Shown: positions 10,995 through 18,557 of the stretch, piece after piece
Position numbering within the stretch: position 1 is the first letter of the stretch
How the letters are laid out: every line of letters starts with the position of its first letter
Virus record (IMG/VR): IMGVR_UViG_2974597119_000001
Location: 30,006 to 94,005 of that record
DNA from: a virus
Lineage: Duplodnaviria > Caudoviricetes
Length of the DNA: 64,000 nucleotides
Reading direction: 5' to 3' (one strand)
Notes under the pieces: model-generated
The model's database searches: none
What the model saw: the letters and a program-made list of their open reading frames with translations, nothing else
Told to the model about the DNA's origin: nothing
Program-made: the position numbers and the translations under genes

Positions 10995-12188
10995 GTGAAC
11001 CATGTCATCCACGAAGAAGGATCTCGCCCCGTAAAAATCTGGACCGATGAGGTCGAGGACAGCGCGCTCACCCAGCTCAAGAATCTGGCGCGCCTGCCGT
11101 TCATCCACGGCAACGGCGTCGCGGCCATGCCCGACGTTCACGCTGGCATCGGCGCCACGGTCGGCAGCGTCATCGCGACGGACAAAGCGATCATCCCGGC
11201 CGCCGTCGGCGTCGACATCGGTTGCGGCATGAACGCCGTGCGCCTGTCGCTCAAAGCGTCCGACCTGCCGGAAAGCCTGACCGCCATTCGCCACCAGATC
11301 GAGCGCGACGTGCCGCTGGGCGCCGGCGGCGCACACAAGCCCGACCGTATGCCGACCATGCCCGAGCATCTGTGGAACGGCCTGGGCCTGCTGACCGCGA
11401 AGCACGAGGCCCTGGAAAAGAACAGCGCCGGCCGCCAGCTCGGCACGCTCGGCTCCGGCAATCACTTCATCGAGCTCTGCCTGGACGAGAACCAGGACGT
11501 GTGGATCATGCTGCACTCCGGCTCGCGCGGCATCGGCAACCTGATCGGCCGCTACTTCATCGAGAAGGCCAAGCGCCGGATGGAGCAGTATTTCATCAGC
11601 CTGCCCGACGGCGATCTCGCCTACCTGCCCGAGGACACCGACGACTTCAACGATTACGTCGAGGCGGTGAACTGGGCCCAGGACTACGCGCTCGAGAACC
11701 GGCGCGTCATGATGGAGGCCGTCATCGCCGCGCTGCGCCGGCATGTGTCGTCGCACCTTTTCGACTTCACGATCACCCAGGAAGCGATCAACTGCCACCA
11801 CAACTACGTCGAGAAGGAGAACCATTTCGGCCGGAACCTGTGGGTCACGCGCAAGGGCGCCATCCGCGCGCGCGCCGGAGACTTGGGCATCATTCCTGGC
11901 TCGATGGGCCAGCGCAGCTACATCGTGCGCGGCAAGGGCAATGTCGAATCCTACTGCTCATGCTCGCACGGTGCCGGCCGGAAGATGAGCCGCGCCGCCG
12001 CGCGCCGGATGTTCACGGTCGACGACCTGAAAGCACAGACCGCCGGCGTCGAGTGCCGCAAGGACGACGCCGTGCTGGACGAGATCCCGGCCAGCTACAA
12101 GGACATCGACGCCGTGATGGAAAACCAGCGCGATCTCGTCGAGGTCGTGCATGTCCTGAAACAAGTTCTGTGCGTCAAGGGCGCGTAA
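10995..12188 (+). CDS. rtcB: RtcB RNA ligase
   Basis: MPDVHAG, VGVDIGCGM, GTLGSGNHFIE, HSGSRG, CHHNY, SCSHGAGR, DEIPASYK. Confidence 0.95.
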   Translation: MNHVIHEEGSRPVKIWTDEVEDSALTQLKNLARLPFIHGNGVAAMPDVHAGIGATVGSVIATDKAIIPAAVGVDIGCGMNAVRLSLKASDLPESLTAIRHQIERDVPLGAGGAHKPDRMPTMPEHLWNGLGLLTAKHEALEKNSAGRQLGTLGSGNHFIELCLDENQDVWIMLHSGSRGIGNLIGRYFIEKAKRRMEQYFISLPDGDLAYLPEDTDDFNDYVEAVNWAQDYALENRRVMMEAVIAALRRHVSSHLFDFTITQEAINCHHNYVEKENHFGRNLWVTRKGAIRARAGDLGIIPGSMGQRSYIVRGKGNVESYCSCSHGAGRKMSRAAARRMFTVDDLKAQTAGVECRKDDAVLDEIPASYKDIDAVMENQRDLVEVVHVLKQVLCVKGA

Positions 12189-14705: not shown

Positions 14706-15071
14706 ATGAAGCGCATTCTCGTATCCATCCTGGCCGCCGCCATAATGGCGCCCGTCGCCGCGCACGCTGGCGACTTCATCGCCAAGCGGCTGCAGGACGA
14801 CGGCTCGATCATCGGCCTGACATCGGTGCCGTGCGACGGCGAGCCCGGCCACAAGGCGCTGATCGCCAAGGGCAACTGGATGGGCGCCGGCTGCTACCTC
14901 GTGATGCCCGACGGCTCCGTCAACGTGCGCTGGATCTGGAAGAAGGATCCGCTCGACGCGTACCAGCGCATCGAGCCCGCGCAGCTCCAGCCGGTCGGCG
15001 ATTTCAAGGGCTGGCCCGCCGTCGACTGGTCCAAGCAAGCGCCGTTGTCGCCAAAAGGCAACAGAGGCTGA
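14706..15071 (+). CDS. Secreted hypothetical protein
   Basis: Sec signal ending in AHA; GAGGGG RBS. Confidence 0.7.
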   Translation: MKRILVSILAAAIMAPVAAHAGDFIAKRLQDDGSIIGLTSVPCDGEPGHKALIAKGNWMGAGCYLVMPDGSVNVRWIWKKDPLDAYQRIEPAQLQPVGDFKGWPAVDWSKQAPLSPKGNRG

Positions 15072-15112
15072 TGCGCGCGACGCGCGAATCGAAATTGATG
15101 TAGAATTCGTTC

Positions 15113-15188
15113 CGTGGTGTAGCGCAGTTGGGAGCGCGCCGGGCTCATAACCCGGAGGTCGCAGGTTCGAGTCCTGTCACCGCAACCA
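15113..15188 (+). tRNA. tRNA-Met(CAT), initiator-like
   Basis: Cloverleaf, CAT anticodon, C1:A72 mismatch, GGG/CCC anticodon stem, encoded CCA; TAGAAT -10 at 15101. Confidence 0.93.
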
Positions 15189-15195
15189 GATTCAT

Positions 15196-15208
15196 CGCTC
15201 TTTCAAAA
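15196..15208 (+). promoter_or_regulatory. boxA-like antitermination element
   Basis: CGCTCTTTCAAAA resembles rrn boxA TGCTCTTTAACA and sits at the start of the RNA cluster. Confidence 0.45.
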
Positions 15209-15263
15209 CTTGTCGCGAGCACGTCGACGCCATCGAAGATGGCCGAGGCGGAAGCTCATGAAT

Positions 15264-15339
15264 TGCCAAGTATCTCAGTTGGTAGAGAGGCGCACTGTTA
15301 ATGCGCATGTCGCTGGTTCGATCCCAGCCTTGGCAGCCA
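15264..15339 (+). tRNA. tRNA-Asn(GTT)
   Basis: TGCCAAG/CTTGGCA acceptor stem, GTT anticodon, G73, CCA. Confidence 0.95.
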
Positions 15340-15495
15340 GAATGTCTACCACCGACGCTCAGCTTGCTGAGCAGCTAGATGCCAGCCTAGGGTGGGAATG
15401 GCTGGACCCAAACCGGACGGGTATTGCGGGCGTGTGGTAACGCTCAAGAGACGGGGACTACGCCCGACTGGCCGCCGTAAGCGGCCATCGATTTC

Positions 15496-15573
15496 CGGTC
15501 CCTAGCTCAGTCCGATTAGAGCGTTCGCTTTGGGAGCGAAGGGTCGCAGGTTTGAATCCTGCGGGACCGACCA
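15496..15573 (+). tRNA. tRNA-Pro(TGG)
   Basis: CGGTCCC/GGGACCG acceptor stem, TGG anticodon, CCA; variant T-loop TTTGAAT. Confidence 0.92.
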
Positions 15574-15993
15574 GAATTGCAGCAGTGCCGAGCCCGCTCG
15601 ATGACGACTGAGTGCCCAACTGGCGGGAAACAAGTTCGTCCGATTGGCCCCCGTTAACAGGCCCGTGAGCTCCCTGGCAACAGGGACCACACGTAAGCAG
15701 GTTGGTCGGATAGCGGCGCAAGCCGTGATGCTTCCGAGGTGATGACCAGCCAGCCTGCTACCGTGTGGTGCTCAGCCCCAGTTGAACCTCTGAAACATGA
15801 GACCGGCCCCGGAAGGTGTAGCTTCGGCACGACCGCCCAAGGACTGGCAGATAGCAGACACTGAGCACCGCTCGCATACACCTGTGAGAGAAGTCCCCGC
15901 CGACGCCAGAAGCTGGCCGAGGGGCAGGCGCAGATCGGAGTCGTAAGCCGCCAAATCGAGTAGCACGTAACCTGGGCCGCGTAAGTGCCCAGG
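15574..15993 (+). ncRNA. Unassigned structured RNA, region A
   Basis: No credible ORF; nested stems ACCACACG/CGTGTGGT and GGTGCTCAG/CTGAGCACC; GCAA tetraloop hairpins. Confidence 0.5.
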
Positions 15994-16069
15994 ATCCTCA
16001 AGACGTGGTGCTGAACATCCTTGGTCGGGTTTCCGGGGTGGTTCCCGGACAGCACCACGCCTTGAGGAT

Positions 16070-16378
16070 GGTAGTGTGCGGGCCTCGGCCCGCGAGACGT
16101 GAAGTGAATGGCGTTCGGACGCGGGTTCAATTCCCGCCGGCTCCACCACTGGCAGCATTGGCGTCGAGCTCAGCATCCCCGGGGTCCGGATCACGGGTGA
16201 GTTCCAGTGCTGCCAGTCATGGGGCCGACCGGTTTCGACGGGCGCGCTGCAGCGGATCGGACTACTCGGCAAGCGGAGCCGTAAACCAAGCAAAATCGTA
16301 GACGCCAACGACGACTACATCCGCGCCGCTGCTTAAGCGGTGACGGCCTCCCCCGGCAGGTGGCAACAGAAGCCGGGG
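16070..16378 (+). ncRNA. ssrA: Circularly permuted two-piece tmRNA: acceptor piece ~16070-16148, intervening segment 16149-16220, coding piece 16221-~16378; tag ANDDYIRAAA
   Basis: T-arm plus CGGCTCCACCA precedes GGGGCCGACCGGTTTCGAC; G3:U70 pair; tag ORF 16304-16336. Confidence 0.92.
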
Positions 16379-16436
16379 ACCATCATCGAAGCGGCATTCG
16401 AGCCGGGGATAAGCCCGGCCCGCTTCGATGATGGTG

Positions 16437-17330
16437 TCCCGCAAGGGATGGGATTGACCCACACGCAAACGTCCTTCGAGGCGGTACCCGCTGGCGACGG
16501 TTAAAGCAGCCAGCTCATCACGTCCGCCCTGGCGACGAAAAGGCCAGGACCATTGGTCCGGGGTCGCCCCCCAGCATGCCGGCGGGTCGCCGAGGAAGAA
16601 CGACCGTCGATCCGGAAAACGAGGCACGGGTTCTCGGATGGCTCGCCGGCATGTGGACCGCCATGATGATGGCGCTCCTGGCGCAGTAGTGCGGAGGGAC
16701 TTGTCTATCCCCGAGCCGCGTCAGGGCGCCGCCATGATGGCGAATGCCCTGACTGACGGGCACGTCCTAAGTGGCGTGGGGATAGGCATCCACGCTGCCG
16801 GTTAGATTCCGGCCGCCGTCAACGAGGAAAGCCCCGGTACGCAAGCCGGCAAGCGGAGGCAGAGCCCGCTCCGCCTCAAGCGCAGGGTCAGCGCGCCGCG
16901 CGGCTGGAAGGCCGCAAGAGTCTTCCGGACCGATCCGTCGGTCTCGGCCGCAGGCCCGGGACCCCGGGAACGAAAGCGGATGCTGAGATACCGCCCGCAA
17001 GGCGGATCATTTCAGTGCAGCGAGTAGGAGGTCGGGAGAACCGTTCCGGCGGCAGTCATGCGCGCAGGAGCAAACGTCAGACCCAGCCAATCCATACGGT
17101 CGGTGGAAGTCCGAGCCGGAGACGTAACCGGCACCCTGACGCGCAGCAGGCAGGCTGCGCGGTCCTATCCCAAGGATCACCGGTAGGAAGGAAACGCCGG
17201 GCCGATGAGGGTCGCGAGCCTGAGCACAGGGGCCGACTGACGATAAATTGGGAAGCCATCGCGAGAGTGCGAGGCCCGCTTGCCGGGCCGCCTATCGATC
17301 CAAGTTGACGGTTTCGTTACTTGACTCTCA
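16437..17330 (+). ncRNA. Unassigned structured RNA, region B (one large RNA or several small ones)
   Basis: No credible ORF; many CGCAAG/GNRA hairpins, T-loop-like hairpins and a tRNA-like cloverleaf at 16754-16821. Confidence 0.5.
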
Positions 17331-17480
17331 CTTCAAAAAATCGAGTCCGATCAACGGGTTAAGTCCCTGTTTGAAACCTACTTGCGCGCTTCTGGCGCAC
17401 ATAATCCACATGCCCATTTGCTAAATCGTGCGCGGCCACAGATTGGTCACAGAGCAACAAACCAACAGTCCACACCCATC

Positions 17481-18377
17481 ATGCGCGCACATGGCAACAA
17501 TCGGATTACTGAACCTATCGTGAAGTATCGCCCAGGCACCGTGCACACAGAGCACAACGTGCACGGGCTGAGCATTCACCACGTCTCGGACGTGACTGGG
17601 GTCGAAAACATCCTCGTCCCCGAGCACTCGATATTCCTGGTCAACACACCCGTGATCTCACTGGATACGTGGCAAGGGGAGCGCCTGCCCCCGCGCCACT
17701 GGGCTACCGGCGACGTAGCGTTTCTACCGGCCGGATCAGAAATCACATCCACCCCGGATAGACCCTACGGCAGTGCCATGATCCGCGTGAACGACGAGGC
17801 GTTCAAAAGGGCCACGAGCTGCGACCTGCAGTACGACAGCGCCGAGCTTCGGTATGTCGGAATGTCGAACCCCATCGTCTCCCGCATCGCGACCACAGTG
17901 GCAATTTCTCTCGTGCAGCATCCGCCATGCGCCTTGCTTGTCGATAGCCTCGCGACGACCCTGAGCATCGCAGTGCTCAACGAGATCACCGGCAGGCCCA
18001 GGAAGGAGATGAGCGGAGCCCTCTGCCCCAAGAGGAAGCAGCGCGTGATCGAGTACATCGAGGCGAATATTGGGGATCCAATCACCCTGTCCGAACTCGC
18101 GAGCGTGGCGGCGCTCAGCCCTCACCATTTCAGCCGGTCGTTCCGTCGGACGTTCGGTGTTTCGCCAGTGCGATACGTCTGGACGCGGCGCATCGACATG
18201 GCAAAGCGGTTGATGCGCTACTCGGCGCTGCCGCTCGCGGCGGTCGCCTTGACGTGTGGCTTCTCCAGCCAAAGCCACTTCTCGACGGCGTTCCGGGTGG
18301 CGACCGGAGTGACGCCGGCCGCCTACATGCGCACGATCACCGATATCGCGCGACCGAGGGATTCTCGAGCGACCTGA
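17481..18377 (+). CDS. AraC-family transcriptional regulator (start uncertain)
   Basis: ITLSELASVAALSPHHFSRSF...VALTCGFSSQSHFSTAFR double HTH. Confidence 0.9.
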   Translation: MRAHGNNRITEPIVKYRPGTVHTEHNVHGLSIHHVSDVTGVENILVPEHSIFLVNTPVISLDTWQGERLPPRHWATGDVAFLPAGSEITSTPDRPYGSAMIRVNDEAFKRATSCDLQYDSAELRYVGMSNPIVSRIATTVAISLVQHPPCALLVDSLATTLSIAVLNEITGRPRKEMSGALCPKRKQRVIEYIEANIGDPITLSELASVAALSPHHFSRSFRRTFGVSPVRYVWTRRIDMAKRLMRYSALPLAAVALTCGFSSQSHFSTAFRVATGVTPAAYMRTITDIARPRDSRAT

Positions 18378-18408: not shown

Positions 18409-18445
18409 AAGCCCCGCAGTCGTTTCCAACGTGCGGGGCTTTTTT
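18409..18445 (+). terminator. Rho-independent terminator
   Basis: AAGCCCCGCA...TGCGGGGCTTTTTT. Confidence 0.8.
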
Positions 18446-18557
18446 AGGGCGCCGATAGGGCGCAGCAGCATCACTCAGAAAGAATCCAGCTTAGGCTTTC
18501 ATGGCGGTCTCCGGTGACGGTTGATCAGGCGTTCACACGATGAACCGCCATTGTACA

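Follow-up and report, generated by a model that had tools for sequence, protein, structure and literature searches.

A string of small structured-RNA modules beside a phage tmRNA, conserved singly and shuffled among proteobacterial phages

The DNA that follows the tmRNA gene of a 94-kb tailed phage is a string of about ten small structured-RNA modules, which are conserved singly and shuffled among proteobacterial phages; we hold this description with high confidence. A preliminary description, made from the letters alone, had pointed to an ornate region without open reading frames and had offered two readings of it, a new large RNA of the GOLLD class or an array of decoy RNAs. Our analysis largely confirms the observation and rejects the giant-RNA reading. 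It supports the array, whose pieces are separate and reordered; the decoy role is something that we infer. At least six of the small RNA families in the region match nothing in Rfam 15.

Results

Positions refer to the window, the whole 64,000-nt stretch analysed, taken from a virus record of 94,005 bp (record positions 30006-94005) that CheckV rates complete. Window genes include those for a portal, a gpA-type terminase, a DNA methylase, an RtcB tRNA ligase (10995-12188), which precedes the array by ~3 kb, and an AraC-family protein (17454-18377), encoded by the first gene to follow the array. The nearest named relatives of the terminase, at 41-48% identity, are those of Aeromonas phage ST4 and Pseudomonas phages Touem01 and Dolphis, and IMG/VR relatives reach 72-83%. 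The shared modules point to Proteobacteria as the host range, the best named matches being to Bordetella and Burkholderia phages. Records are cited by label where needed: L003 is phage P1, L001 and L004 are Bordetella phages, L031-L147 come from IMG/VR, and G001-G004 are terminase relatives.

The longest gene-free interval of the 94-kb genome (15071-17382) holds a non-coding operon of ~2.3 kb that comprises three tRNAs, a permuted tmRNA and, as its second half, the region studied here, all on the + strand. A -10-like hexamer at 15101..15106 (+), 6 nt before tRNA-Met and without a good -35, is a candidate operon start; a consensus promoter scan found no full promoter there, and a promoter and terminator scan across the window reported none. 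Arrays of relatives likewise start directly after a -10-like box, which in L154 is a full consensus match. The tRNA-Met(CAU) gene (15113..15188) is of the initiator type, with a C1-A72 mismatch and three G-C pairs at the base of the anticodon stem, and is followed by tRNA-Asn (15264..15339) and tRNA-Pro (15496..15573). The phage-borne, two-piece tmRNA (16056..16378) was found both by Rfam RF04321 (104.5 bits, 16095-16336) and by ARAGORN, whose call, 16056-16427, swallows the first unit of the array at its end. Its intervening segment of ~69 nt (25 nt in the model) forms a long stem. The phage genome has no SmpB gene, and an SmpB-linked reading was dropped. In L014, a terminase relative, a permuted tmRNA is again followed by cassettes.

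Cassette-like sequence also fills the spacers that separate the tRNAs from one another and from the tmRNA (15190-16075). The upstream half of the array (15574..16075) contains long framed stems at 15686-15769 and 15994-16069 (inverted repeats I3 and I4; local z -6.0 and -6.9), 15574-15646 matches L154 at 79%, and 15464-15489 matches L007. The span first singled out, 16437-17330, is therefore a real feature but only part of a larger one, since the first unit starts at 16380 and similar sequence lies in 15190-16075. The first terminator-like hairpin with a T run after the array lies beyond the AraC-family gene (18409..18446, +) and, as read from the sequence, is a possible transcript end; the terminator scan missed it because its loop exceeds 8 nt. 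Those arrays of relatives that were read end at an intrinsic terminator. AraC-family homologs lie near the terminase in G001, G003 and G004. RtcB is absent from five related array-bearing phages, so a link to tRNA repair is not general.

All nine motifs named in the preliminary description are present, from 16437 to a hairpin starting at 17115, and its account of a stem-rich fold holds, the 901-nt stretch beating 20 of 20 dinucleotide shuffles (z -5.5). We agree that no ORF is credible: the third-position GC content of the region's ORFs (0.60-0.76) is near that of the second position, whereas called genes mostly reach 0.73-0.95, and a coding reading was dropped because this phage codon bias is missing. 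Pairing is local, with 84% of pairing probability in spans of <100 nt and no pair spanning >100 nt above a probability of ~0.5. The fold signal is uneven, with local z of -3 to -6 in units U0, U3 and U4, as against values near 0 to -1 over 17135-17335. One stem proposed earlier, 16720/16746, clashes with a covarying stem of U4 and the D-like arm of U5 and is probably not a conserved pairing. In public reads, two oligo-dT runs of one study yield scattered phage contigs of 150-280 nt at a depth of 2-4, on both strands and including coding DNA; at this trace depth none falls between 15976 and 17795.

Seven segments of the region (U2, U4, U5, U6, U8, U9 and U10), plus U0 upstream, have separate homologs in other phages, and in differing orders. 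The window order is U0-U2-U4-U5-U6-U8-U9-U10; elsewhere we found U8-U0-U9-U2-U5 (L051), U4-U6-U5 (L007), U0-U9-U10 (L026), U6-U9 (L154) and U8-U2-U5 (L084). BLAST against GenBank phages recovered separate pieces from unrelated phages: Bordetella phage IFTN6 (16964-17131), Burkholderia phage CSP3 (16809-16869) and P1, where the matching piece (17093-17133) lies directly upstream of tRNA-Asn. Across 50 whole records chosen for carrying pieces, the longest match covers ~200 nt of 916 nt. Because homologs were gathered by sequence patterns, core invariance is partly built in. Unit ends are approximate and may be off by a few bases. Compensatory changes occur in five families (U0, U4, U5, U6 and U8). 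About 45% of the span (the interior of U1, U3, U7 and 17138-17330) is without a homolog, homolog searches that included nhmmer being negative for these parts. A plasmid collection gave no match to the region, scanning GTDB for the U4 pattern turned up a single chance match, in an archaeon, and a metagenome scan gave two loci, apparently repeats of loci already known.

Among the four terminase relatives, only G002 clearly shares sequence with the window array; G001, G003 and G004, together with G030, have arrays of their own with different content. ARAGORN detects no tRNA in the arrays of G002, G003, G004 and G030, showing that such arrays can stand without tRNA genes, and none in L007 or L154. 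The array of L007 (9874-11950, minus strand) runs for 2.1 kb with repeated frame stems and a terminator. Rfam searches of the L007 and L159 arrays gave no significant match except one tRNA-Met.

A layout recurs in which a short hairpin module is followed by a long imperfect frame stem and then by a tRNA-like unit, whose 5′ acceptor strand is formed by the last five bases of the frame (U0 to U1, and U4 to U5). The same overlap is seen in L051, L156, L158, L159, L289 and L290. A blind count of frame-then-tRNA-like arrangements gave 27% against 14%, a weak result mixed with chance stems and both strands. In the slot directly after U4, six phages carry an RNA with an acceptor-like stem and a T-like arm, its interior different in each.

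The first unit, U0 (16380..16434; z -6.0), is a 15-bp frame stem that encloses only a T-arm-like hairpin. It is a shortened member of its family, the others bearing a D-like arm and variable cargo, and across eight homologs the frame is 91% paired against 72% after shuffling (0/1000). The 3′ end of U0 overlaps the 5′ strand of U1 (16430..16521), a multi-arm unit defined by its fold and closed by a short acceptor-like stem; its slot holds other cargo in L051, L159 and L290. U2 (16522..16551) is a conserved hairpin module of ~30 nt with 23 IMG/VR pattern matches, ~16 of them distinct true copies, which are nearly invariant and hence offer no covariation evidence. U3 (16555..16659; z -3.8) is a long, centroid-stable rod that includes the 16575/16644 stem noticed earlier. 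U4 (16661..16740) is a framed rod with a nearly invariant apical part and five homologs at 88-92% identity (a pattern scan of IMG/VR gave 5); four of its 31 pairs have changes on both sides among six sequences.

U5 (16736..16821) is tRNA-shaped, with a 7-bp acceptor stem, a D-like arm, a stub, a long variable arm and a T-like arm, and belongs, as a divergent member, to a family of kissing-loop RNAs that is widespread. In the 64 kb, model R2, to which the window contributed no sequence, has U5 as its sole significant match (29.1 bits, E 2e-5). In 11 family members the 7-bp acceptor stem has changes on both sides at five of seven pairs, and the D-like and T-like loops pair over 5-7 bp, variants in L158 and L159 pairing best with their own partner loop. 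The search pattern required pairing of the acceptor, D and T stems, so that only the loop-loop pairing and the R2 cross-search are free of selection. The loop-loop pairing of U5 itself is just 4 bp, which chance matches 27% of the time. Matches to the family occur in 219 GenBank phage records, the best 40 of which carry no RNA annotation; members occur in the laboratory phages P1 (3515-3616), HK620, D3, PAJU2 and mEp460. A canonical tRNA was rejected, as ARAGORN makes no call, the tRNA-Sec score on 16736-16820 is 21.7 bits against a cut-off of 47, the anticodon stem has 2-3 bp and no CCA is encoded. At gathering and E-value thresholds, Rfam reports nothing in the region other than that sub-threshold score. 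The 7-nt loop of the stub (16760-16770) resembles the anticodon loop of a tRNA-Arg(CCU), a feature not conserved in homologous slots.

U6 (16826..16870) consists of a conserved leader and two hairpins, the second covarying at four of five pairs, and is found at 8 IMG/VR loci and in CSP3. U7 (16875..16968) is a multi-hairpin unit by fold; predicted pairing of its 5′ end with ~17133-17143 may frame U7-U10.

U8 (16971..17027) has a fixed core strand pair, a bulge of three purines and an apical stem that varies freely. We take the core to be a bulged-G motif of the sarcin-ricin (loop E) type. More than 119 IMG/VR matches were found, and the window copy scores 38.5 bits against model R1 over positions 9-67. 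Two stems that lie outside the search pattern are preserved among 102 distinct copies, the outer one being 91-93% paired (48-74% with shuffled partners) and the inner one 88-99% (42-90%), and a 71-sequence alignment holds 66 cells with changes on both sides where 23 are expected. The apical insert varies freely from 13 nt (in L066) to 42 nt. Like other array-embedded copies, that of the window keeps the core and inner stem, with its outer closing stem reduced. The family is strand-specific: a ribosome-binding site and start codon lie downstream on the same strand in 52 of 101 copies and on the other strand in none. Most copies stand alone between co-oriented protein genes. A stop codon lies no more than 45 nt upstream in 68 of 101 copies, and the preceding gene often ends in an SSB-like acidic tail (L031-L147); in the window, ~350 nt separate U8 from the next gene. 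An A-C-C that resembles a tRNA end comes directly after the outer stem in 42 of 102 copies.

U9 (17030..17083; z -2.7) is closed by a stem and has two conserved internal-loop strands; three homologs in other arrays (L026, L051 and L154) were recognised by pattern only. U10 (17089..17132) has a leader, a T-loop-like hairpin and a second hairpin whose loop can pair with the leader over 3-5 bp as a pseudoknot. This pairing is kept in 10 variants, which is suggestive, the variants being hand-picked. U10 occurs in P1, in Bordetella phages, at more than 118 IMG/VR matches (mostly P1-like) and in 543 E. coli genomes. Outside the window a tRNA gene often begins a few nucleotides after it, as in P1, Bordetella phages and L026. 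The several hairpins of the 3′ segment (17138..17297; z -0.2 to -2.3, not significant) may or may not belong to the array.

Discussion

Taken together, our results are best explained by a phage stable-RNA operon of interchangeable cassettes, in which the mosaic string is transcribed and processed and its products act in trans as shape mimics; we give this reading as a whole a probability of roughly 0.55. Transcription probably runs along the + strand through the three tRNA genes (Met, Asn and Pro), the tmRNA and the array together, and host enzymes probably cut the product into units. The long frame stems would be sites for RNase III, and the acceptor-plus-T-arm ends would be substrates of RNase P or RNase E. 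Because frame and acceptor strand overlap, the next unit can fold only once the frame has been cut or opened, a requirement that, by analogy with T7 and rRNA operons, fits cleavage first by RNase III and then by RNase P/E. In T7 early and rRNA operons, RNase III processing stems are long imperfect stems that bracket units. The stems of the array also bracket units, but here cleavage is putative and the 3′ end of the stem overlaps the next acceptor strand. Processed, abundant non-coding RNAs are known from phage PAK_P3 (PMC10914365), and a tRNA-like Y RNA is acted on by RNase P and CCA addition (PMC4201824).

That the products act in trans, as shape mimics binding host proteins, seems to us somewhat better than an even bet, because loops and internal-loop strands are fixed while stems and apical cargo vary freely. 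Their company (an initiator tRNA, a tmRNA and RtcB) and their shapes (a tRNA elbow, an acceptor/T helix and a sarcin-ricin motif) point to translation. Defence nucleases read the anticodon, acceptor stem and T-arm of tRNAs (PMC12851939). We favour decoys or substitute ligands, and tentatively suggest that they could sustain translation during infection by soaking up or blocking defence enzymes that attack tRNA and ribosomes, working beside the phage's own initiator tRNA, tmRNA and RtcB ligase. If so, phages would own a modular, RNA-only counter-defence kit. More speculatively, and with considerable doubt, proteobacterial phages might share a recombining pool of small structured-RNA cassettes, kept in dedicated operons as an RNA counterpart of anti-defence protein islands. 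Every family would then imitate its own part of the translation apparatus (tRNA elbow, acceptor/T helix or sarcin-ricin loop) and so neutralise one particular defence or translation factor of the host.

The habits of U8 weigh on the other side: that most copies stand alone between protein genes counts against action in trans and fits a role in cis. The modules could be punctuation that processes, stabilises or antiterminates, some of it possibly self-cleaving, and that sets the ends and half-life of tRNA, tmRNA or downstream mRNA. We think this unlikely for the array as a whole and nevertheless take it seriously as a rival, particularly for U8 and U10, given how closely U8 follows stop codons and U10 precedes tRNA genes. 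Phages are also known to carry tRNA-linked HDV-like ribozymes. Yet the array would then consist of ten successive signals without a gene between them, which a cis role does not readily account for, the arrays of L007 and L154 have no ARAGORN-detectable tRNA to punctuate, and no catalogued self-cleaving ribozyme of Rfam matches.

The tRNA-like frames might instead be scaffolds that stabilise base-pairing regulators, with the variable middles as seeds. C4 and P4 CI RNAs are small cloverleaf-like phage RNAs, excised from a longer transcript by RNase P, and the units resemble them in being small, cloverleaf-like and phage-borne. The constant frames and freely varying inserts of the U0, U5 and U8 families would suit such antisense RNAs, and phage sRNAs that pair with host mRNA exist, as LPR1/PreS shows (10.1101/2024.10.31.621285). 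We nonetheless consider seeds improbable, as the inserts examined are mostly self-paired stems with no obvious shared seed and can shrink to 13 nt or, in the window U0, vanish, and no Hfq-type U tails follow the units. The C4 model (RF01695), which does score in L001, finds nothing in the window, where the next gene is of the AraC family and not an antirepressor. In Bordetella phages with U8 or U10, the same region also contains Burkholderiales-2 and C4 RNAs (L001:2684-2757, L001:6168-6255 and L004:1658-1731).

The possibility of one large ornate RNA of the GOLLD or ROOL type, or of a covalent assembly of modules that folds as a unit, has context in its favour. GOLLD and ROOL RNAs, like the region, are phage-borne, tRNA-adjacent, free of ORFs, rich in stems and of similar total span, and GOLLD in particular recalls the region in size and in its location in phage tRNA arrays (PMC12286853). 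A long-range complement between 16717-16731 and 17129-17143 (14/15), and the stem that may enclose U7-U10, could be taken as its framework. We regard this reading as very unlikely. Even at E 10, the covariance model of the conserved GOLLD 3′ domain (RF02032) matches nothing in the genome or in 14900-17600, and ROOL (RF03087) has no match either, although one of the ROOL searches, in which no control genome gave a match, is weak on its own. A colinear RNA of ~800 nt is contradicted by the ~200-nt limit on homologous pieces, the absence of a whole-length homolog and the shuffled order: the region is not one conserved molecule, its parts shuffle and its pairing is local. The complement also competes with conserved local stems of U4 and U10, some covarying, and by a rough estimate ~0.3 of this kind are expected by chance in 2.35 kb. 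Neutral debris of decayed tRNA genes and recombination relics is the least probable account: it would suit U0 as a deletion derivative, a U8 without a clean outer stem, a divergent U5 and the segments without homologs, but not compensatory changes in five families, intact inner stems in the window copies or 2.3 kb retained in a gene-dense genome.

Other known classes fit less well than the stable RNAs of phage tRNA clusters. YrlA and Y RNAs share with U5 a tRNA-like domain with D-, T- and acceptor-like arms (by fold and family covariation) and the proximity of RtcB; in contrast, the elbow of the U5 family is built from Watson-Crick kissing loops, RF02553 has no match and the genome has no Ro60 (TROVE) gene. 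A retron or RT-associated array was set aside, no RVT_1 domain being present in the window genome or four related genomes. T4 RNAs C and D and the T5 RNAs are stable small RNAs of phage tRNA clusters, and the region is likewise non-coding, structured and co-oriented with tRNA genes. Together with ncRNA1 and ncRNA2 of PAK_P3 (PMC10914365) they resemble it as structured non-tRNA RNAs, probably processed, in or near phage stable-RNA regions, a likeness of context and description. The array differs in having about ten such RNAs in a row, families common to many unrelated phages and a frame-plus-cargo grammar. We regard these RNAs as its nearest known kind. The literature searched contained no description of the shuffled cassette organisation or of the region's RNA families, and full-text searches for module motifs returned unrelated primers only; the families may be included in the set of candidate RNAs that Fremin et al. 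(PMC10690425) left unnamed.

A practical warning follows for similar loci: where kilobases next to phage tRNAs lack ORFs, they should be broken down into modules before a giant RNA is called. The presence of U10 in P1, and of the U5 family in P1, HK620, D3, PAJU2 and mEp460, brings these RNAs into laboratory phages, so that E. coli and Pseudomonas become systems in which the role of non-tRNA RNAs in phage tRNA regions can be tested. P1 itself carries an array of this kind: its leader contains U10, and the U5-family member follows. Between the P1ban promoter and tRNA-Asn, P1 also carries an unannotated tmRNA-like resume region (L003:2568-2672) that encodes an SsrA-type tag of 10 codons, lacks a tRNA-like domain and matches the permuted-tmRNA model weakly (24.1 bits, E 0.014).
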